Below are positions 1-6,953 of a stretch of 6,953 bases of DNA, piece by piece. Where the stretch lies: the IMG/VR virus record IMGVR_UViG_3300029226_000131, positions 1 to 6,953 of that record; one strand, given 5' to 3'. The stretch is from a virus. A model generated the notes under the pieces. It was not told where the DNA came from. It did not search any database and saw only the letters and a list, made by a program, of their open reading frames with translations. A program made the position numbers and the translations under genes. The stretch's first letter is position 1. The number at the start of each line of letters is the position of its first letter.

Positions 1-15
1 AGACAGAACAGACCG

Positions 16-44
16 AAATCGCATAATGCGGATTGATGTTAAAT
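16..44 (+). other. dif-like XerC/XerD recombination site A: AAATCGCATAA-TGCGGAT-TGATGTTAAAT, with a 7-nt central region
   Basis: Compared with E. coli dif (GGTGCGCATAA TGTATA TTATGTTAAAT), the inner XerC arm CGCATAA is identical and the XerD arm matches 10/11. A second copy lies at 6820..6848. Confidence 0.6.
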
Positions 45-63
45 GTACTGCATCCTCGAAAAC

Positions 64-100
64 GAAAATGACATTTTCTGGTTGGGAAAATGCCATTTTA
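64..100. repeat. Two near-identical 15-bp palindromes, GAAAATGaCATTTTC (64..78) and GAAAATGcCATTTTA (86..100), with centres 22 bp apart
   Basis: Read directly from the sequence. Each is a 7-1-7 palindrome. The two can also pair with each other at 13/15 positions around the loop 79..85. Repeated at 6868..6904. Confidence 0.7.
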
Positions 101-114
101 AAAAGTTGCAGTGC

Positions 115-149
115 AAGTAACATAATCACGCAGTTACATTATGCGAAAT
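115..149 (-). other. dif-like XerC/XerD site B, inverted relative to site A. The minus strand reads ATTTCGCATAA-TGTAACTGCGTGA-TTATGTTACTT, with a 13-nt central region.
   Basis: The XerC arm shares the 10-mer TCGCATAATG with site A. The XerD arm matches TTATGTTAAAT at 9/11. Repeated at 6919..6953. Confidence 0.55.
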
Positions 150-247
150 CAATCTTCATATTGATCAGACAACGAGATATATAAATATTTAACACTGTAA
201 TAACCAAATAAAAGTGTAAAAGTAATCATTCCAACCAAGTAATCCAT
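149..247 (-). CDS. Hypothetical 32-aa single-pass membrane peptide (MDYLVGMITFTLLFGYYSVKYLYISLSDQYED). It is below the cutoff of the supplied ORF track.
   Basis: Hand translation: ATG at 247..245 and TGA at 151..149. A GAGGTG Shine-Dalgarno sits 7 nt upstream and overlaps the stop of the 259..465 ORF (TGAGGTG). The peptide has a hydrophobic core and an acidic tail. Confidence 0.3.
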   Translation of the reverse strand: MDYLVGMITFTLLFGYYSVKYLYISLSDQYED

Positions 248-258
248 TAGCAAACACC

Positions 259-465
259 TCAACTATTATAAAGTTTATAAATTTGATCTGCGATTAAATA
301 AGCCTTATCAAACTCATCAAGATCTTTATAAACACCACAATTTTTAAATGCATCAAGAACAGCAAAGAAAGATTTATAAAGTTCAGAACCTTTATCATTA
401 AACCTATTGTTCACAACCTCTATTGCTAATTCCTCTAAATATTCTAACGCTGTCTTGAATTCCAT
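259..465 (-). CDS. Hypothetical 68-aa acidic, predicted all-helical cytoplasmic protein. It is accessory cargo downstream of gI/Zot.
   Basis: ORF on the operon strand, separated from gI by a 120-nt spacer. No signal peptide or TM segment. Net negative charge: 13 D/E versus 8 K/R by count. No convincing SD before the ATG. No family recognised. Confidence 0.55.
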   Translation of the reverse strand: MEFKTALEYLEELAIEVVNNRFNDKGSELYKSFFAVLDAFKNCGVYKDLDEFDKAYLIADQIYKLYNS

Positions 466-585
466 AATTATCAGTTCGCGCCTACGGACGCTCTAAAAAT
501 AAAGATTAAGATCATAAGGGAGCTTGTAATCAAAGAGAAGAAATTTCAATGTTTTAATTGCTTCTCGTCACTCGTAGACACTCGT

Positions 586-1272
586 TTAAAATGCACTAAA
601 ACTTGCTAAATTATTTGCCCCGTTTGTTGTCTTAGCTTCAAGTCGGCTATCTACTTGATTATTTGCGATCTGAGCTGGTGGCGGTACATTACTAGGAGTT
701 GATTGAGGCTGCTGTTGTTGTATTTGACTAGGTGAAGTCTGTTGATTGGTTTTTGCATTGAAATAATCAAATGGTCGTCTTGAACTGTCGTGCATAAGGT
801 CCTTGCAGACTTTTTTATCAATTCCGTCAATTTTTGTTCCCTGTTGGTCATATGCTGAACATGAATTTTTCGTACAAAAACAACCGCTAAAAGTACGGCT
901 ATTGACAACATTAGGGGTAATGTTAGGTTTAAAAGCGAATGGATCTGATACTTCATAAGTAGGCTCAGAAGATGAAACAAAATCAACAACTGGAGCACTA
1001 GCAGGATTTTCATTTTGATTTTGAACTTGCGTAGGGTCTGTTGGGCTTGAAGCTGGTAATTGATTAGGATTTGATTTATCTGGTTGTTTTGATGTTGATT
1101 CATTTTTTTTAGATTCCTGAGATGTCGAAGATGCTTTATCTCCAGTAAATGTAGATACAAGTGGATTTTTACCAGTACCAGATAAAAGAAACATGGCGAT
1201 GATAAAAAATAGAACCGCAAGGACAAGACAAATAACAATTTTCTTTGGAATACGTTTTTTACGAGTATGCAT
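586..1272 (-). CDS. Possible in-frame internal restart product, analogous to pXI (residues 279-506 of pI)
   Basis: The in-frame ATG at 1272..1270 gives MHTRKKRIPKK followed by the TM helix. This mirrors the f1 pXI start (MKLTKIYLKKFSRV plus TM). No clear SD is present. Confidence 0.3.
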   Translation of the reverse strand: MHTRKKRIPKKIVICLVLAVLFFIIAMFLLSGTGKNPLVSTFTGDKASSTSQESKKNESTSKQPDKSNPNQLPASSPTDPTQVQNQNENPASAPVVDFVSSSEPTYEVSDPFAFKPNITPNVVNSRTFSGCFCTKNSCSAYDQQGTKIDGIDKKVCKDLMHDSSRRPFDYFNAKTNQQTSPSQIQQQQPQSTPSNVPPPAQIANNQVDSRLEAKTTNGANNLASFSAF

Positions 1273-2106
1273 CGTTGATGATTTATACAAGTTGTAAACG
1301 TGCTTTGGAAATCTCCAACGACTTATATTTTCAGCACGAGCAATTGATTTGATTGCATTCGGTGAATCTTGTACTACAGACCACTCCATACGCATTGATT
1401 GTTCCCAGCCAAAAATATTGACTAGATGTATATGCATACTGGCTAATTTTCTGATGTATTTATGAACAAATGATGGTTCTTGAGTGATGAATAAAAAATC
1501 ATAACCCTTATGACGATGGATTGTCAGCTCTTTAACAATCGGGTCTGCTTTAGTTGTTTCATCTGAAAAAATTGGAATTAATTGTGCTTCATCAATGACA
1601 AAATAGGAACCTTGAGGCGTCTTTCTCCAGTCGCAATCAGGTGGCAAAGGACGGCACTGGACAAGCTTTAAATCGGCAATATTGGTATAAATAGTGCGGA
1701 CAGGTTTAAAACCCTGAAACTTGGTATTTTCATTGACATTAATGTTTTCAATAATCAGATTTAATAATGAAATTCTTTCAAAATAATATGCTGGGAAGTT
1801 ATTAACAATATCGTCAGTCTGAGGATTACTAATAACATTAATAAAATATTCAGTTTTTAAGAAATCAAAAAAATCAGGTTCTAAAAATATAATTTCAGAT
1901 GTTCTTTCTAAACCTTGACCTTTAGTAACTAGTATTAAATCAAGATATTCTTGAAGTTTTAAATTAGCAATTTTCTCAAAAAAAGCTTTAGCATAATAAT
2001 AATTATGTTTTAAATTTGCGATGTTATCTCTTGATAAATCTAGCATCATTTCTGTTGCTAGTAGAGATTTCCCCGAACCCGGAGTCGCTGATAAAAAGTT
2101 AATCAT
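586..2106 (-). CDS. gI: Assembly NTPase pI (Zot family)
   Basis: N-terminal Walker A (SATPGSGKS) and Walker B-like motif (YFVIDEAQ). An NLYKSST motif precedes a basic stretch and a TM helix (KKIVICLVLAVLFFIIAMFLL), as in f1 pI. It is the last gene of the morphogenesis block, and its ATG overlaps the gVI stop (ATGA, 2103..2106). Confidence 0.93.
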   Translation of the reverse strand: MINFLSATPGSGKSLLATEMMLDLSRDNIANLKHNYYYAKAFFEKIANLKLQEYLDLILVTKGQGLERTSEIIFLEPDFFDFLKTEYFINVISNPQTDDIVNNFPAYYFERISLLNLIIENINVNENTKFQGFKPVRTIYTNIADLKLVQCRPLPPDCDWRKTPQGSYFVIDEAQLIPIFSDETTKADPIVKELTIHRHKGYDFLFITQEPSFVHKYIRKLASMHIHLVNIFGWEQSMRMEWSVVQDSPNAIKSIARAENISRWRFPKHVYNLYKSSTMHTRKKRIPKKIVICLVLAVLFFIIAMFLLSGTGKNPLVSTFTGDKASSTSQESKKNESTSKQPDKSNPNQLPASSPTDPTQVQNQNENPASAPVVDFVSSSEPTYEVSDPFAFKPNITPNVVNSRTFSGCFCTKNSCSAYDQQGTKIDGIDKKVCKDLMHDSSRRPFDYFNAKTNQQTSPSQIQQQQPQSTPSNVPPPAQIANNQVDSRLEAKTTNGANNLASFSAF

Positions 2107-2441
2107 TTCTTTCTACCCGCAACTAACGCAGGCTGTAAATCTGTTGTAAATGACCAAACTACAGCAGTTGTAATGTATCCAAAAATGATGGTTAAGCACG
2201 TATCAAATTGTGCTACACCTAGATAAGCCAAAAAATACGAGCCTACTGGGAAGCCCTCATTTGAATAATTTGCAATATTATAAAGAGCCGCTTTTGAATC
2301 AAAAATAACTTTATCTAAATAAGTGTACATTGCTAAAACTAAAGGAATAATAATAGCCATAGCCGCAGCTAGACGAACATAACTTGTTCCAGAAAATTGA
2401 GTTAATATCGTTTTTAATACTTCATATAATTTTTTAAACAT
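2103..2441 (-). CDS. gVI: Minor coat / virion-cap protein, pVI-like
   Basis: 112 aa, the same length as f1 pVI, and strongly hydrophobic with several TM segments. It lies between gIII and gI. The assignment rests on position and composition, not on recognised sequence identity. Confidence 0.7.
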   Translation of the reverse strand: MFKKLYEVLKTILTQFSGTSYVRLAAAMAIIIPLVLAMYTYLDKVIFDSKAALYNIANYSNEGFPVGSYFLAYLGVAQFDTCLTIIFGYITTAVVWSFTTDLQPALVAGRKK

Positions 2442-2445
2442 GTAA

Positions 2446-3858
2446 TCACCACTTAATTTCTTTTCTAACTACCGTTTCATATAAAATCCAAAGCCCTGTT
2501 AAATGAGCAATGAGTTGAAGCGGATAACCGAGAAACGTGAAAATCACACAAAGCCAATTTAAACTAATTGTGAAACTTCCCTTAAAATACTGAGTTTCTA
2601 ATACATATGGAACGTCTGGTGGGCATTGTTTCGAAAGTGAAAAAACAGTATCAAAAGCGCGTGAGAAAATACCTTGGTCATCAATTTCCGGTCTTTCTGG
2701 TTCTTCTTCTTTTTCTGGTTCTTCTTTAGTCCACTCTATCCATTCACATACAACACTTGCCCAATCACAAAATGCAGGTAATAGAGATTCCGATGAACCA
2801 GTACCAGTAGTTGTACTTGTAGAACCATCAGGATTTTTTGTTGTACTTGTAGAATCTGTTTTTGTATCTGTTGCAGTATTTGCAGGCGTTACATAGCCCT
2901 CAACAGTTTTGGTACCATCAGTGATTTTGTAATAACCAGGCCTTTTAGGGTCAGTCGGTTTATTTACTGAATTATCTATCGCATTTGTAATGTCTTTTGA
3001 TGCATCTTTAGCTAACTGATTACTAGCAGAATCAATAGTTTGACCGTTTGAACCATCATAAGAGTAAGCATTATTAATAATAGTATTAGATATATTATTC
3101 GTTGTATTGTTCGTTATATATTGAGTAATTTTATTCTCTAAATCAGAATTGGAAACAGGTGTTGAAGTGCTAGGATTATTAGGGTCATAATTTTGATTTT
3201 TAATTCTATTAACTGAAAACCAATCTAAGAGATAACCAGCAGAATTATATCCTATGCAATTATATCGATCAGAAGTTGAAATAGTACATGAAGGATCTTT
3301 AAGACCATTTTGAACAAAACATAATTCAAATTCTTCAATAGCATCTGCAGAATTATTAAACTTTGTAGGACTTTTACATACTGGATCACCATCAGACCAA
3401 ACATTATTAGAAACCCAATAATATTCACCTAGTGAACCGTCTTTCTTACTTACTTTACCGCCCTCATCCATTACCCATCCAACACCCTTAATTAATGCAG
3501 CAACAGCAGCAGAACCTAAGAAACTAGGTAAAGTTGCTTTACCTAGTGCTTTGGCTTTGTCGAGTCTTGAAACAATAGCTTTTGCAACACCTGATGGATT
3601 AATAGGTTTGGTAACAGAACCACCGCCCGTGACTTTACCGCCACTTGAGGCACTCATAGAAGAAGAAGCAGATTGTGTTACATTTTTACCATCATTGGCG
3701 GCTGCAATCGAGCGATCTAACATGTCGTGAGTACGCTGCATTGCATTTGCATATTCTCTGCGTGCTGCTTCTTGATTCATGTAATGTTGTTCAGGCGTAA
3801 TTGCAAGCGTTACTTGTGAAAAAAATAATAGAGAGAAAATAATAAAAATAGTTTTCAT
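2446..3858 (-). CDS. gIII: Adsorption / minor coat protein, pIII-like
   Basis: Signal peptide MKTIFIIFSLLFFSQVTLA followed by ITPEQ. Cys-containing N-terminal domains. S/T/G/N-rich linkers (for example TDTKTDSTSTTKNPDGSTSTTTGTGSSES). C-terminal hydrophobic anchor followed by RKEIKW. It lies after the gVIII terminator. Confidence 0.85.
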   Translation of the reverse strand: MKTIFIIFSLLFFSQVTLAITPEQHYMNQEAARREYANAMQRTHDMLDRSIAAANDGKNVTQSASSSMSASSGGKVTGGGSVTKPINPSGVAKAIVSRLDKAKALGKATLPSFLGSAAVAALIKGVGWVMDEGGKVSKKDGSLGEYYWVSNNVWSDGDPVCKSPTKFNNSADAIEEFELCFVQNGLKDPSCTISTSDRYNCIGYNSAGYLLDWFSVNRIKNQNYDPNNPSTSTPVSNSDLENKITQYITNNTTNNISNTIINNAYSYDGSNGQTIDSASNQLAKDASKDITNAIDNSVNKPTDPKRPGYYKITDGTKTVEGYVTPANTATDTKTDSTSTTKNPDGSTSTTTGTGSSESLLPAFCDWASVVCEWIEWTKEEPEKEEEPERPEIDDQGIFSRAFDTVFSLSKQCPPDVPYVLETQYFKGSFTISLNWLCVIFTFLGYPLQLIAHLTGLWILYETVVRKEIKW

Positions 3859-3926
3859 GGCAGTAATGCCTTAAAAATTAAATATGAAAAAAAAGAAAGT
3901 GTAATGAGAAGAATTAAATTTGACAT
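3855..3926 (-). CDS. Hypothetical 23-aa hydrophobic peptide (MSNLILLITLSFFSYLIFKALLP) immediately upstream of gIII
   Basis: Hand translation: an AGGGG SD sits 6 nt before the ATG at 3926. The stop TGA overlaps the gIII ATG (ATGA, 3855..3858). It could be a leader or coupling ORF or a tiny coat component. Confidence 0.3.
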   Translation of the reverse strand: MSNLILLITLSFFSYLIFKALLP

Positions 3927-3939
3927 GCTGAACCCCTAT

Positions 3940-3966
3940 ATAAAAAAGGGAGCGAACTCCCTTTTC
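3940..3966 (-). terminator. Rho-independent terminator after the major coat gene
   Basis: The minus-strand RNA reads AAAAGGGAG-UUCG-CUCCCUUUU followed by UUAUAU. That is a 9-bp stem, a UUCG tetraloop and a 6-U run, 8 nt after the gVIII stop. Ff phages have a terminator in the same place. Confidence 0.85.
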
Positions 3967-3973
3967 TTGGTTA

Positions 3974-4264
3974 TTAGCCAGCTCGACGAATACCGCCACG
4001 AGAGTTTGTGAAAGCAATAATTACAAGGGTGATGCCGATTGCAACAACAAAAAGCGCACCCAAGCTAGTACCGATACCACCTAAAGCGGCTTGTGCTGGG
4101 GCCAAAAAATCAGGAATAGCTGAACCTTCAGCAGCATTTGCATTTGATGCAACTAAAACACCAGTGGCAACAGCGGCAGGCGCAAGTTTTGATTTGAATT
4201 TTTGGAACCAAGTTTTTTTATGAACTTCTTGTTGTTCAATTACTTCTACGTTTTTAAAAGTCAT
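3974..4264 (-). CDS. gVIII: Major coat protein precursor, pVIII-like
   Basis: Strong SD (AGGAGA) upstream. The leader ends in SNANA, followed by AEGS. The predicted 52-aa mature protein has an acidic N-terminus (AEGSAIPDF), a hydrophobic core (GALFVVAIGITLVIIAF) and a basic C-terminus (SRGGIRRAG). Confidence 0.9.
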   Translation of the reverse strand: MTFKNVEVIEQQEVHKKTWFQKFKSKLAPAAVATGVLVASNANAAEGSAIPDFLAPAQAALGGIGTSLGALFVVAIGITLVIIAFTNSRGGIRRAG

Positions 4265-4274
4265 GAGGTTTCTC

Positions 4275-4478
4275 CTAAAGTTTGACTTTTTTTAATCCAT
4301 AAACTGACCACTTGTAAGCCAGAATCATGGTGTATATCGACCACTGAAGCCCCACAAATTTAAAAACTGATGCTAATGGTAAGTACTGTTCTAGATATTG
4401 ATCCAGATTCACTGACATGCAGTTAATACCTACCTGTTGAGCATTTTCTAAAATTTGTAGTGATTCACAAATGATCAA
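4275..4478 (-). CDS. Small membrane protein, candidate minor coat (pVII/pIX analog). The start is uncertain: TTG at 4478 gives 67 aa, ATG at 4418 gives 47 aa.
   Basis: The ORF ends inside the gVIII SD. The 47-aa version (MSVNLDQYLEQYLPLASVFKFVGLQWSIYTMILAYKWSVYGLKKVKL) has an acidic N-terminus, a hydrophobic core and a basic tail, with AGGTAGGT 9 nt upstream of its ATG. Confidence 0.55.
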   Translation of the reverse strand: MIICESLQILENAQQVGINCMSVNLDQYLEQYLPLASVFKFVGLQWSIYTMILAYKWSVYGLKKVKL

Positions 4479-4576
4479 TTTTTATTCCCCTTACATTGGT
4501 AAAAATGCAAGAAGTAGGAATTTTGATTAGGTAAGACACAACCGCATTTCTTGCATTTAATTTGTAGTTGTGTCAT
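4475..4576 (-). CDS. Doubtful 33-aa Cys-rich ORF (MTQLQIKCKKCGCVLPNQNSYFLHFYQCKGNKN)
   Basis: Hand translation: weak SD, and the stop overlaps the TTG start at 4478 (TTGA). The ORF contains an 11-bp inverted repeat, so the stretch may be structured non-coding DNA instead. Confidence 0.2.
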   Translation of the reverse strand: MTQLQIKCKKCGCVLPNQNSYFLHFYQCKGNKN

Positions 4577-4602
4577 GATTATTATTACCTAAGTTATTGA
4601 TT

Positions 4603-4630
4603 TATTTACATATTATACATTATGCGAAGT
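4603..4630 (-). other. Third dif-like site C. The minus strand reads ACTTCGCATAA-TGTATA-ATATGTAAATA.
   Basis: It contains the same 10-mer, TCGCATAATG, as sites A and B. The central region is identical to E. coli dif (TGTATA). The XerD arm is degenerate (7/11). It lies in the gap between two small ORFs. Confidence 0.45.
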
Positions 4631-4638
4631 TGGTATAA

Positions 4639-4743
4639 TTAAGGTATTGATAAGTAATGTCTTGTTTGCATTTCTGAACATTTAGCGTCAAACAATGCAA
4701 ACACACAAAGACCTAAAACCGTAATAAATACGAACTCTTTCAT
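4639..4743 (-). CDS. Hypothetical 34-aa hydrophobic protein (MKEFVFITVLGLCVFALFDAKCSEMQTRHYLSIP), pVII-position minor coat candidate
   Basis: Hand translation: the ATG overlaps the gV stop (ATGA, 4741..4744 region). Its size and hydrophobicity resemble Ff pVII (33 aa), which also directly follows gV. Confidence 0.5.
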   Translation of the reverse strand: MKEFVFITVLGLCVFALFDAKCSEMQTRHYLSIP

Positions 4744-5039
4744 CACTTAGCAACTTGCTGGTGGTTTGGTTTAACAACTGGCTTAACACTAAAAATCTGC
4801 ATCTGTGCACCAAACTTTGTTTGTGACTCTACAAATTGAATTTCGACTTCTTGGGCGTTGTCTGCACATTCAACAAGGACTGCTTGAATCTGTTCTACTG
4901 GCATAACTCCCGATCCAACGGATAAGTTATAGCGAACTGGTGAAAATACAGTTGTAGATAGATAAACCTTTTCTACACCGTCTTTCTCAGTCTTATAGGC
5001 AGTTGGTAAAATTGTGCGTGTATTGAATTGAACTTGCAT
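4743..5039 (-). CDS. gV: ssDNA-binding protein, pV-position. The likely start is ATG at 5039 (98 aa); the ORF track extends it to a TTG at 5060.
   Basis: It immediately follows gII. A GAGGAGG SD sits 9 nt before the ATG at 5039 and overlaps the gII stop (TGAGGAGG). The C-terminal segment FGAQMQIFSVKPVVK resembles f1 pV FGSLMIDRLRLVPAK. Otherwise the call is positional. Confidence 0.7.
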   Translation of the reverse strand: MQVQFNTRTILPTAYKTEKDGVEKVYLSTTVFSPVRYNLSVGSGVMPVEQIQAVLVECADNAQEVEIQFVESQTKFGAQMQIFSVKPVVKPNHQQVAK

Positions 5040-5052
5040 GGTTAAAGCCTCC

Positions 5053-5421
5053 TCAGGCAACTAAATGTAAACGCTGTTTAGGCGTGTATTGTGAAACTGG
5101 TAATTGATAATCTTGTGGTAATTGATCGCACATCTTGAGTTCAAACATGCGTACAAATGGAATGACCTTACCGTTTGGATTCTTAGCAAGGTTTTGTAAG
5201 TGTGATTTGCTAATTTCGCATTCTAAAAGCGAGTTGATGCACTTATGAAATTGAGCTTTGCTATAAATTTTTTGAGTAGCTTGTAAACCCATTTGACGTA
5301 CTAATGAGTAAAATTTCATAGCGTTCATTGCTTTGATATAACTGGGCTTACCAGTCTTTGTATATGTAACCAACTTAGATTTAAGTAAATCTAAGATTTC
5401 TCCATCTGATGAAAAATTCAT
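5053..5421 (-). CDS. gX: Nested in-frame gX-like product (C-terminal 122 aa of pII)
   Basis: The in-frame ATG at 5421 is preceded by AAGGG 7 nt upstream. MNFSSDGEILDLLKSK aligns with the f1 pX start MNIYDDSAVLDAIQSK (remembered sequence). Confidence 0.5.
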   Translation of the reverse strand: MNFSSDGEILDLLKSKLVTYTKTGKPSYIKAMNAMKFYSLVRQMGLQATQKIYSKAQFHKCINSLLECEISKSHLQNLAKNPNGKVIPFVRMFELKMCDQLPQDYQLPVSQYTPKQRLHLVA

Positions 5422-6276
5422 ATATTTACCCTTCATTGTGTCTAAGATCGGGTCGAAAGCTACGTGCCAGAGGCGTAGCAATAATTCTGGCTGTTCATGT
5501 TGAAGCTTTATTAGCTCAAATAAATTTGTCGGATAACCGTTTTTGGTCATGTATGTTTTACATATACGAGCTTCTAAACGAAGAACTGCATTAGCAAACG
5601 GTAAGGCATCATGCATTGCAAAAACTAAGGCTTTAGAGCGTTGACAGCCCTTGTCTGCTTGTTTCTGAATCTTGTTAAGTTGGCTTTTTACTTCTTCGAA
5701 TTTGCCGTAAGCCTTTGGACGAACACTGGCACCGTCATTACCCCAAGTAATATAGTTTTCATATTTGATTTGACGGGCTTTACGGTGTCCAGATGCAAGA
5801 TTTGCCATGTAATCCAAAACAGGTTGAACCATGTTCTGATGAGGCAATCTAAATAAGTAAGTCGTATCAAGGTGCAATACTTCGGTTTTTTCAAAATCTA
5901 AAATTGGAACCAAATTAGGAAATGCTTCAATCAACATGCCAAGCATTTGATCTGCACCTAATTCAATAGATTCAAAACCATATACGTTGTGACCTTGAAG
6001 CAATTTAAGCGGTGATGCTTTGATTTCAACATAAGGCGGTGTATTCATCGTATTTGTATAGAACTTCATAGCCATATCAGTAAAGTCTGAGGCTAATGAC
6101 TCATAAGGATGATACAAATCCCCTGTTATTGTCTGACCATCATCTGACTTACTTACATGGCGTGTAGCTGCAGGAATTCCATAGTCGCGAATATCACCAT
6201 TAAACCAATGGTGATTATCAAGACTGCGAACAAACGCAATATTGATTGGAATCGCTAAACGGAGAAAATCGAGCAT
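5053..6276 (-). CDS. gII: Rolling-circle replication initiator / nickase, Ff gene II family
   Basis: Several blocks match remembered f1 pII. MLDFLRLAIP matches MIDMLVLRLPF. HPYESLAS matches HPFESLPT. VEIKASPLKLLQGHNVYG matches VEIKASPAKVLQGHNVFG. LRLEARICKTYM..NLFELI matches VRFEARIKTRYL..NLFDAI. ECEISKSHLQNL..VIPFVRM matches ECGIPKSQLMNL..VVPLVRF. Confidence 0.93.
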   Translation of the reverse strand: MLDFLRLAIPINIAFVRSLDNHHWFNGDIRDYGIPAATRHVSKSDDGQTITGDLYHPYESLASDFTDMAMKFYTNTMNTPPYVEIKASPLKLLQGHNVYGFESIELGADQMLGMLIEAFPNLVPILDFEKTEVLHLDTTYLFRLPHQNMVQPVLDYMANLASGHRKARQIKYENYITWGNDGASVRPKAYGKFEEVKSQLNKIQKQADKGCQRSKALVFAMHDALPFANAVLRLEARICKTYMTKNGYPTNLFELIKLQHEQPELLLRLWHVAFDPILDTMKGKYMNFSSDGEILDLLKSKLVTYTKTGKPSYIKAMNAMKFYSLVRQMGLQATQKIYSKAQFHKCINSLLECEISKSHLQNLAKNPNGKVIPFVRMFELKMCDQLPQDYQLPVSQYTPKQRLHLVA

Positions 6277-6390
6277 ATGAAATCACAAATTCATAAATCA
6301 CTTTTAACACATAAAAACATAAATCACATATGAATTCAATCACAAATCACAAATTCATTTAGAATTAAGTGATTTTAAAAGGATTATCAA
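6277..6390. promoter_or_regulatory. Divergent control region between gII and the RHH regulator. It carries six AATCAC[A/T] heptads and a 15-bp direct repeat.
   Basis: Direct heptads lie at 6281..6287, 6296..6302, 6322..6328, 6338..6344 and 6345..6351 (the last two are contiguous). One inverted heptad lies at 6368..6374. AAATCACAAATTCAT occurs at 6280..6294 and 6344..6358. A possible plus-strand -10 TAGAAT lies at 6360..6365, and SD AAGGA at 6379..6383. Confidence 0.7.
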
Positions 6391-6594
6391 ATGGCTAAGA
6401 CATTTCGTTTTACAGATGAAGAAGAACAAGCACTTAATGAAGTTGCTTTAAAATTGAATAGAGATTTAGTTAAAGCAGGTAAAAAGCCTTTGAGAGATAC
6501 TGAAATATTTCATGAAATCATCAAACAAACTTTACTTGATGGAATAATTGAAGTTAATAGAGATGGAAATGTAAAAGTAGAAACAAAAAACTAA
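6391..6594 (+). CDS. Small transcriptional regulator, ribbon-helix-helix-like, in the rstR position (candidate phage repressor)
   Basis: 67 aa. The N-terminal KTFRFT strand followed by the helix DEEEQALNEVALKL is the typical RHH (Arc/CopG/omega) pattern. It is the only plus-strand gene, is divergent from gII, and has SD AAGGA 7 nt upstream. Confidence 0.65.
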   Translation: MAKTFRFTDEEEQALNEVALKLNRDLVKAGKKPLRDTEIFHEIIKQTLLDGIIEVNRDGNVKVETKN

Positions 6595-6710
6595 AATTAG
6601 TGATCAATATTTAATCGAAATAGTGGTTAAATAAGAAACATTCTCAATAACTCTGAAAGCTCCGTTATATATAGCTCACAGCAGGAATTGAAAAAAACTT
6701 TCGAGACTCA

Positions 6711-6736
6711 GGCACACTATTAGATAGCAGTGTGCC
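6711..6736 (-). other. Candidate plus-strand replication origin hairpin with an Ff-like nick motif
   Basis: The minus strand reads GGCACACT-GCTATCTAAT-AGTGTGCC, an 8-bp stem with a 10-nt loop. TAATAGTG spans the loop and 3' arm exactly as in f1 ori (GAGTCCAC-GTTCTTTAATA-GTGGACTC, nicked before AATAGTGG). Confidence 0.5.
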
Positions 6737-6749
6737 CTATCTCAAATCT

Positions 6750-6818
6750 GGTTCTGTTCTGCTCGGTCGGGCGGTCGAACGTCCCTCCTCCCTTCCTTGG
6801 TCGCAGACAGAACAGACC
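6750..6818. repeat. Imperfect 11-bp inverted repeat enclosing a 46-nt GC-rich loop that has its own hairpin. Candidate packaging signal or minus-strand origin.
   Basis: CTGTTCTG (6754..6761) pairs with CAGAACAG (6808..6815), and flanking pairs extend the stem. Bases 6761..6804 are 31/44 G+C. An inner hairpin spans 6769..6785 (GGGCG-GTCGAA-CGtCCC). CGGTCG occurs twice. A 17-nt homopyrimidine run lies at 6782..6798. Confidence 0.5.
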
Positions 6819-6953
6819 GAAATCGCATAATGCGGATTGATGTTAAATGTACTGCATCCTCGAAAACGAAAATGACATTTTCTGGTTGGGAAAATGCCAT
6901 TTTAAAAAGTTGCAGTGCAAGTAACATAATCACGCAGTTACATTATGCGAAAT
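6805..6953. repeat. Copy 2 of the exact 149-bp direct repeat. It carries second copies of dif-like sites A (6820..6848) and B (6919..6953) and of the twin palindromes (6868..6904).
   Basis: Identical to 1..149. Confidence 0.97.

Follow-up and report, generated by a model that had tools for sequence, protein, structure and literature searches.

A 67-residue protein gene and its upstream AATCAC[A/T] heptads form a mosaic cassette in an Acinetobacter inovirus

Introduction

The omega repressor of plasmid pSM19035 is a ribbon-helix-helix (RHH) protein that binds the heptad 5'-WATCACW-3' (PMC2441792, PMC9499535). Its sites are made up of 7-10 unspaced heptads that overlap promoters, and a contiguous pair of heptads, whether direct or inverted, forms the minimal high-affinity site (PMC2441792, PMC9499535). 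Within the heptad, Thr29 of omega makes contact with the central G-C pair, and binding is lost upon T29A substitution (PMC2441792, PMC9499535); as native heptads, AATCACA, AATCACT and AGTGATT have been described (PMC9499535). In filamentous phages, ORF13 of the Pseudomonas inovirus PMBT54 has been reported to be omega-repressor-like (PMC10534721). The first paper to characterise Acinetobacter filamentous phages mentions only a "replicative/regulatory module" (PMC11209303), and regulation in this group is essentially undescribed. Here we analyse IMG/VR virus record IMGVR_UViG_3300029226_000131, positions 1 to 6,953 (6953 bases, below called the window), a circular 6.8-kb Acinetobacter inovirus in which heptads of the omega type lie between the replication gene gII and a divergently oriented gene for a 67-residue protein. 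A preliminary description of this DNA had set out the omega site rules (WATCACW, direct or inverted, at least two contiguous), in agreement with the literature cited above, and had proposed that the protein is a heptad-reading RHH lysogeny switch.

Results

The heptads between gII and the putative regulator gene

The region is bounded by two divergent genes:

5053..6276, minus strand: gII, encoding the replication initiator (pII), with matches to Pfam Phage_CRI (1.6e-41) and G2P_X_C; it heads the leftward phage operon
6391..6594, plus strand: gene for the 67-residue regulator (MAKTFRFTDEEE...), a member of phrog_5642 without a Pfam family

The regulator gene is the sole conserved plus-strand gene identified in the window and adjoins the divergent promoter region; gII is its presumed target. 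AATCAC[A/T] is found on the plus strand at 6281, 6296, 6322, 6338 and 6345 and on the minus strand at 6368-6374. The positions bear out the initial count of six heptads within at most 95 bp, five direct and one inverted (all lie within 6281-6374, or 94 bp), with a contiguous pair at 6338..6351, and a motif search returns all six as matches to WATCACW. The 15-bp repeat AAATCACAAATTCAT is exact at both 6280 and 6344 and occurs nowhere else in the window. This clustering is far above chance. When 6277-6390 is shuffled preserving dinucleotides, AATCAC occurs 0.33 times on average and none of the shuffles attains the observed six copies (0/20,000); six copies of any 6-mer whatsoever are seen in 0.8% of such shuffles. 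Over the whole window there are 11 AATCACW heptads where 3.8 are expected, a number which 0/200 shuffles get to. The conserved unit exceeds the heptad and reads (A)AATCACA[A/T]AT from 6280, 6321 and 6344, with start-to-start distances of 41 and 23 bp. The individual sites are as follows:

S1, 6280..6290 (heptad 6281-6287), plus strand: AAATCACAAAT; invariant, left edge of the conserved cassette
S2, 6295..6302, plus strand: AAATCACT; weaker and variable, with AAATCA invariant and then C or T
S3, 6321..6331 (heptad 6322-6328), plus strand: AAATCACATAT; invariant
S4, 6338..6344, plus strand: AATCACA; lineage-specific extra copy, which makes the only contiguous pair
S5 with its flank, 6344..6361 (heptad 6345-6351), plus strand: AAATCACAAATTCATTTA; invariant across 17 nt
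S6, 6368..6374, minus strand: inverted AATCACT; both its sequence and its orientation vary

Conservation was assessed in 35 IMG/VR loci in which the regulator is 86-100% identical and whose upstream regions collapse to 20 distinct variants. The heptads of S1 (6281), S3 (6322) and S5 (6345) each read AATCACA in 20/20 variants, a conservation of 100% compared with a mean of 85% for the remaining region. S2 (6296) reads AATCAC in eight variants and AATCAT in the other 12. At S4 (6338), AATCACA is present in 2/20; most others have AAGCACA, part of ACACAA (reverse complement TTGTGT). S6 (6368) is GTGATT in 10 of the 20; in the other variants AAATCAT or AAATCAA stands there in direct orientation, or the site is missing. 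Distances of 15, 26 and 23 bp separate the conserved sites. The omega-like heptad array first described is thus not what is conserved: the sole contiguous pair is lineage-specific and the conserved sites are spaced. Since that pair is present in only 2/20 variants, the contiguous-heptad cooperativity of omega cannot be the conserved mechanism.

The repeats and the putative regulator gene form one cassette

When the window is compared with the 35 loci by local blastn, the similarity is in many of them limited to 6277/6280-6594/6614, i.e. to the repeats and the open reading frame (ORF). The conserved DNA block starts exactly at the first repeat and stops at the regulator stop codon, with gII excluded. 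Across the repeats, the neighbouring gene encodes a G2P protein that is 95, 84, 74-70, about 35 or about 31% identical to pII of the window, depending on the locus. In locus L032 (1513-2888) the cassette is joined to a 72-residue ORF, followed by an initiator of the Rep_trans family (PF02486), and there is no G2P. Loci L006, L007 and L034 carry a protein of 385-387 residues homologous to this Rep_trans initiator. The repeats and the 67-residue regulator gene are one mosaic cassette and, because G2P proteins of 31-95% identity or a Rep_trans initiator adjoin the same cassette, the repeats travel with the regulator, independently of the type of initiator. In the preliminary description, covariation with gII instead of the regulator was to count against a regulatory role of the heptads; they covary with the regulator, being kept beside divergent G2P and Rep_trans genes alike. 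In L006, L007, L032 and L034, the replication modules have apparently been exchanged around the constant regulatory cassette.

The wider protein family and its genomic contexts

The 67-residue protein matches the profile of phrog_5642, an unnamed family, over its full length (E=1.9e-23, residues 1-65 to profile positions 5-67 of 68), while Pfam and NCBIfam scans gave nothing above threshold. Its close homologues comprise 130 cluster representatives, with identities of 73-98% among the 120 listed and lengths of nearly always 66-70 residues; those named to species are all from Acinetobacter. An exhaustive profile search (E<=0.001) extends the family to 62 representative clusters at the 50% identity level. 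Its signature is M-x-x-T-x-R-L-T-x-x-E ... I-N-K-x-L ... G-x-x-P-x-x-D-S-E-L-x-H, in which Asn23 is invariant and Arg6, Glu11, Leu26, Pro33, His41 and Gly59 are nearly so.

More distant contexts were obtained through exact-protein look-ups; distant relatives were not found in IMG/VR by alignment or with the P0128 and P0152 queries. In 11/12 of these contexts the family gene and the replication gene (Phage_CRI/G2P or Rep_trans) of an inovirus contig of 6-8 kb point away from each other, sometimes with a small ORF between the two. The functional analogy with RstR/ig-2 of phage CTXphi, suggested at the outset, fits this divergent position, which is kept in the window and in 11 of the 12 contexts.

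Upstream repeats in distant branches

Repeats are also present upstream of distant family members, and they vary along with the protein. In locus L043 (52% identity, strand KTVRLN), three AATCAC copies are spaced by 15 and 49 bp, like S1, S2 and S5 (P<2e-4), and in L040 (34% identity, MTIRLN) there are two copies of AATCACA (P=0.006). Dulem virus 62 (L001; about 50% identity, KSFRLT) has five copies of ATAAATNA. In the branch with the strand TNIRLT (L041 and L050; 33-34% identity), three direct copies of TGCACACACG are spaced by 40 and 25 bp, compared with 41 and 23 bp in the window, and phage NEU2023, with the same TNIRLT strand, has three direct repeats of the (T)GCACACA type in slightly varied copies. 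Other branches of lower identity, with various strands, have yet different repeats. The same layout with a replaced sequence is the prediction of operator-repressor co-evolution.

A code by which an ATCA core would be recognised through threonine or serine at position 4 of the strand was considered and discarded: none of the distant loci is enriched in ATCA, L052 (strand KSLRIK) is without it, and P0187 and P0196 have one strand and different repeats.

Fold of the 67-residue protein

The AlphaFold model, calculated with 59 diverse sequences, has a pLDDT of 92.7 and a pTM of 0.70. Residues 1-8 are modelled as a non-helical coil, followed by an alpha-helix (residues 9-28, helix A), a second helix (residues 36-49) and a beta-hairpin (residues 51-65); a shallower alignment leads to the same topology. 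The order of secondary structure elements fits an RHH monomer with an extra carboxy-terminal hairpin, and polar and hydrophobic residues alternate in the putative strand K-T-F-R-F-T. The strand-plus-helix start first proposed for the protein is compatible with this model, but the strand itself is not directly seen in it. Foldseek searches of the PDB with two models gave nothing at E<1, nor did a search of BFVD at E<=0.001. The best BFVD match is a 58-residue uncharacterised phage protein (TM 0.66/0.76, E=0.3); a match annotated as Arc-type RHH has a probability of 0.75, but an r.m.s.d. of 11.5 Å. At the sequence level, the family profile has its top PDB match in the RHH protein NikA (PDB entry 2ba3), with strand and helix A aligned but at a sub-threshold E=0.35. 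Pfam matches for 44 family members are to NikA-like proteins (3/44) and DUF6290 (2/44), and are weak (best E 0.011). An RHH fold thus appears likely from the modelled order of elements, which is compatible with the initial assignment; the fold searches gave no confirmation of it.

Candidate promoters and proposed mechanism

Manual reading of the region suggests the following promoter elements:

6311..6339, minus strand: candidate leftward promoter of gII and the whole-phage operon, with -35 TTGAAT (6339 to 6334) and a 17-nt spacer holding S3
6319 to 6311, minus strand: candidate extended -10 TGtTTTTAT of this promoter; ATAAAAACA is conserved
6360..6365, plus strand: candidate -10 TAGAAT of the regulator promoter; TA[G/A/C]AAT is nearly conserved

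Most relatives have TTGTGT at the position of the leftward -35, and L043 reads TTGTGT-16-TATAAT at the equivalent place. The -35 matching the rightward candidate (6337-6342, CAATCA) is poor; L043 has TATAAT at an equal distance from its last AATCACA. As a consensus promoter scan of 6277-6390 called none, these positions are weak, manually derived hypotheses. If they are correct, S2 would be close to the leftward transcription start, S1 would fall in the 5' leader of the gII transcript (S2 and S1 together at about +2 to +23), and S3 would be inside the spacer of the leftward promoter, as placed by manual reading. On the other side, S5 would be inside the spacer of the rightward promoter and S6 near the start of the regulator transcript.

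In the mechanism that we propose, dimers of the 67-residue protein would place an amino-terminal two-stranded sheet (K3-T4-F5-R6-F7-T8, with Thr4, Arg6 and Thr8 facing the DNA) in the major groove at each (A)AATCACA[A/T]AT site. The three invariant sites (6281, 6322 and 6345), with one to three weaker ones, would cover two back-to-back promoters, occupying both spacers and both transcription starts. Occupation of S1-S3 would switch off the leftward operon from gII to gI, i.e. the whole phage, and S5 and S6 would serve to autoregulate the promoter of the regulator itself. The operator region and the gene would in this way make up a self-contained, exchangeable cassette for immunity or copy control.

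The phage genome

The ends of the window are exactly redundant over 149 bp (1-149 = 6805-6953); given this redundancy, the genome is a circle of 6804 bp, assembled with overlapping ends. The gene set is that of a filamentous phage on the minus strand, where the other identifiable phage genes all follow gII. From the list of ORFs, these are:

minus strand: gV-sized, g8-like, g3-like and g6-like ORFs
586-2106, minus strand: Zot/gI-like ORF

A 68-residue ORF downstream of zot (259-465, minus strand) is without a family match, and a 52-residue ORF (26-184, plus strand), which overlaps the dif-like hairpin described below, is probably not a gene. An Rfam scan of the window gave no match.

Two dif-like elements are located at 6810-6953, a region also present as a copy at 6-149. 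One, at 6820-6849, reads AAATCGCATAA-TGCGGA-TTGATGTTAAAT; the other is inverted relative to it and reads ATTTCGCATAA...TTATGTTAC on the minus strand from 6953 to 6921. As single-stranded DNA, the minus strand of 6810-6953 is predicted to form a long forked hairpin (-29.4 kcal/mol, z = -6.0), which looks like the single-stranded attP of CTXphi-type phages for XerCD integration. Loci L025 and L026 are two copies on a single contig, which fits tandem prophages. About 120 nt past the regulator stop codon there is an 8-bp GC-containing hairpin (6711-6737, GGCACACT-N10-AGTGTGCC) without a T-run, and a second, imperfect hairpin (6746-6823) lies within the only GC-rich stretch of the genome. Both hairpins are candidate packaging-signal or origin structures.

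Discussion

Because the 67-residue protein is always accompanied by conserved AAATCAC repeats in the interval that separates its gene from the replication gene, it is most likely the on/off switch of the phage. That it is the sequence-specific transcription regulator of the phage, with the AAATCAC repeats as its operators, is in our judgement probable. Of the heptad-reading RHH lysogeny switch put forward in the preliminary description, the pairing of the repeats with the protein and the divergence from the replication gene have stood, but the RHH fold is suggested rather than confirmed and the omega-type array is not conserved. A role in lysogeny would follow the example of RstR; comparative evidence from sequence supports the regulator-operator pairing well, and likewise a presumed RstR-like role.

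Several observations weigh against this assignment. Searches of Pfam, the PDB and Foldseek databases give no significant match of the protein to any DNA-binding fold, and the length of helix A (20 residues) and of the loop that follows (seven residues) is atypical of RHH proteins. The promoter scan mentioned above is empty. Among the 12 distant contexts, one (P0128) is not from a phage and follows a Fic gene. P0187 and P0196 are 69% identical and both have the strand MTIRLN, and AATCACA is found upstream of P0187 (L040) only; as these two share a strand and differ in upstream repeats, there is no simple code linking strand residues to sites. Finally, palindromes of the ATGCAT, ATGTAT and TGTATACA types are present upstream of L040, L044, L045, L046, L048, L049, L052 and L041/L050.

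With regard to these palindromes, they accompany branch-specific direct repeats, and could be the site of a second factor or promoter elements. The P0128 gene (L038/L039, 2098-2704) encodes a protein 58% identical to that of the window, with the strand KTFRLS; it is located in Acinetobacter, 13 bp past a gene for a 129-residue Fic-domain protein, and has no upstream repeats. Here the fold may have been domesticated or put to use in association with a toxin.

Four other explanations have to be weighed. The region is AT-rich and the motif short, as a chance cluster would require, but a chance origin, refuted by the conservation of the heptads, has a negligible probability: no local shuffle attains six copies, three copies are invariant in 20 variants, and the heptad recurs in L043 and L040. 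Another reading takes the repeats to be iterons, or parts of an origin, to which pII binds, with the small ORF unrelated; pII-binding iterons were the alternative offered in the preliminary description. Direct repeats beside replication genes are classically iterons, and here they begin 4 bp from the gII start codon, three of them in its presumed leader. Yet the invariant repeats are retained where the adjoining G2P protein is no more than 31-35% identical and where the initiator is of another family, Rep_trans, the conserved block runs from the first repeat to the regulator stop and excludes gII, and the hairpin-rich region expected to carry the origins is elsewhere, at 6600-6953. Since one and the same cassette is joined to G2P proteins of 31-95% identity as well as to a Rep_trans initiator unrelated to them, pII iterons are not what the repeats represent, and we reject that explanation as very improbable.

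The protein might instead truly belong to the omega family (ParB of pSM19035), as a highly diverged member, acting on a left-handed WATCACW array in partition or copy control of an episomal phage. The heptads are identical to native omega sites (PMC9499535), the pattern K-T-hydrophobic-R-hydrophobic of the strand is identical, Thr29 being the residue that reads the heptad (PMC2441792), and the omega-like ORF of PMBT54 is an RHH protein by report (PMC10534721). Set against this, profile comparison gives a probability below 1% with the strands unaligned, Pfam and PDB searches return neither Omega nor 1irq or 2bnw, and the two or more unspaced heptads that omega requires (PMC2441792, PMC9499535) are found only in the 2/20 variants with a contiguous pair. 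The protein also lacks the amino-terminal tail, has an extra carboxy-terminal hairpin and a longer helix A, and no ParA gene is seen in the 6.8-kb genome; we regard true omega kinship as improbable. Somewhat less so, but still unlikely, is a protein that does not bind DNA (a small adaptor, an antirepressor or an antitoxin-like protein), with the repeats as linked promoter or host-factor elements. The absence of a significant DNA-binding family match, fold searches that stay empty despite a confident model, and the paralogue directly downstream of a Fic gene would all suit it. Host-factor or promoter elements, however, would not switch to another repeat at the same three-site spacing where the strand differs; the conserved Arg6, Asn23 and Arg/Lys24 and the amino-terminal strand pattern fit a nucleic-acid reader, and the gene is the only conserved one on the plus strand, at the divergent promoter region.

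A specific regulator with its own operators, the assignment we favour, would provide a concrete regulator family and operator sites for Acinetobacter filamentous phages, and would assign a proposed function to a so far unannotated family that numbers, at 50% identity, at least 62 representative clusters. The cassette moves between phages with unrelated replication proteins and gives testable access to questions of immunity and superinfection in Acinetobacter inoviruses. It also constitutes a natural experiment in DNA recognition, with the strand and heptad of omega in one branch and the same layout with another repeat in a sister branch. A further-reaching and rather doubtful proposal is that these proteins are an undescribed class of inovirus master regulators, packaged with their operators as a freely exchangeable cassette, that they adopt either a non-canonical RHH fold, in which a carboxy-terminal hairpin serves oligomerisation, or a new one, and that the Acinetobacter clade has independently reached the K-T-x-R-x head and the AATCAC[A/T] heptad of omega. 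If true, nature would here have demonstrated that a rule of strand-to-DNA recognition can be transferred.

Comparison with known systems

The phage heptads correspond to the three native words of omega and are found in direct and inverted orientation, over the candidate promoters. By inspection, and without alignment support, K3-T4-F5-R6-F7 of the phage protein can be placed on K28-T29-V30-R31-V32 of omega; the omega strand, verified in PDB entry 1irq, is D-K-T-V-R-V-R and that of the phage protein A-K-T-F-R-F-T. Both proteins are small, and the phage protein would, like omega, control a replication-related promoter and its own. It is plausible from these sequences that the phage protein reads the same word as omega, possibly through the same residues. 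The differences are considerable. Omega binds 7-10 unspaced heptads, while the conserved phage sites are 15-26 bp apart with a unit of about 10-11 bp. Omega has an amino-terminal tail that activates ParA and a ParA partner (delta); the phage protein has neither, since its strand starts at residue 3, leaving no room for a flexible tail, and no ParA-like gene was seen among the ORFs of the window. The phage protein has an additional carboxy-terminal beta-hairpin and a longer helix A, and belongs to a phage of Gram-negative bacteria rather than a plasmid of Firmicutes. When the family profile is compared with omega by hhalign, the probability is 0.2-0.3% and the strands do not align; comparisons with the single sequences of omega, CopG and Arc are uninformative (probability <1%). 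Omega is not matched in Pfam scans or in profile searches of a PDB set that includes 1irq and 2bnw, and tblastn with omega over the phage collection finds no homologue in any inovirus record. Of the kinship or convergence with omega considered in the preliminary description, the identical heptad words remain, without sequence or profile similarity and with a different site layout. The likeness to omega is real for the DNA motif, but not for the layout of the sites or for the protein family.

CopG of pMV158, other small RHH repressors and Arc and Mnt of phage P22 are likewise proteins of about 45-70 residues, and the putative reading of DNA by an amino-terminal sheet would be shared with them. 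As with CopG, the promoter of a rolling-circle initiator would be repressed, with several sites for cooperative occupation of the promoter. However, copG and repB share a transcript and the element bound by CopG is pseudo-symmetric and 13 bp long, whereas the phage sites are direct, non-palindromic repeats; in the phage protein, helix A and the loop are longer than in CopG and Arc, and there is the carboxy-terminal hairpin. In the sub-threshold alignment with NikA, a protein of the R64 relaxosome, its strand and helix A (TLRFSPVEDETIRKKA) are aligned with the family consensus tlRLtdeEqealrkKa; NikA acts at the oriT of conjugation and not as a regulator of phage promoters.

In genome organisation there is a parallel with RstR and ig-2 of CTXphi and with related inovirus repressors. 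In both, a regulator is divergent from the replication initiator of an apparently dif-integrating phage, with repeats in the intergenic region; gene and sites are modular, and silencing of the phage operon and immunity are the presumed outcome. RstR is a helix-turn-helix protein (Xre-type) of about 112 residues, which the phage protein is not: Pfam and NCBIfam scans assign it to no helix-turn-helix family, and homology to RstR (HTH_XRE) is not encountered. In CTXphi the module varies between similar phages, while here it is conserved across phages with very different replication genes. The 67-residue protein would represent a novel family in a familiar role, that of a phage repressor-operator module.

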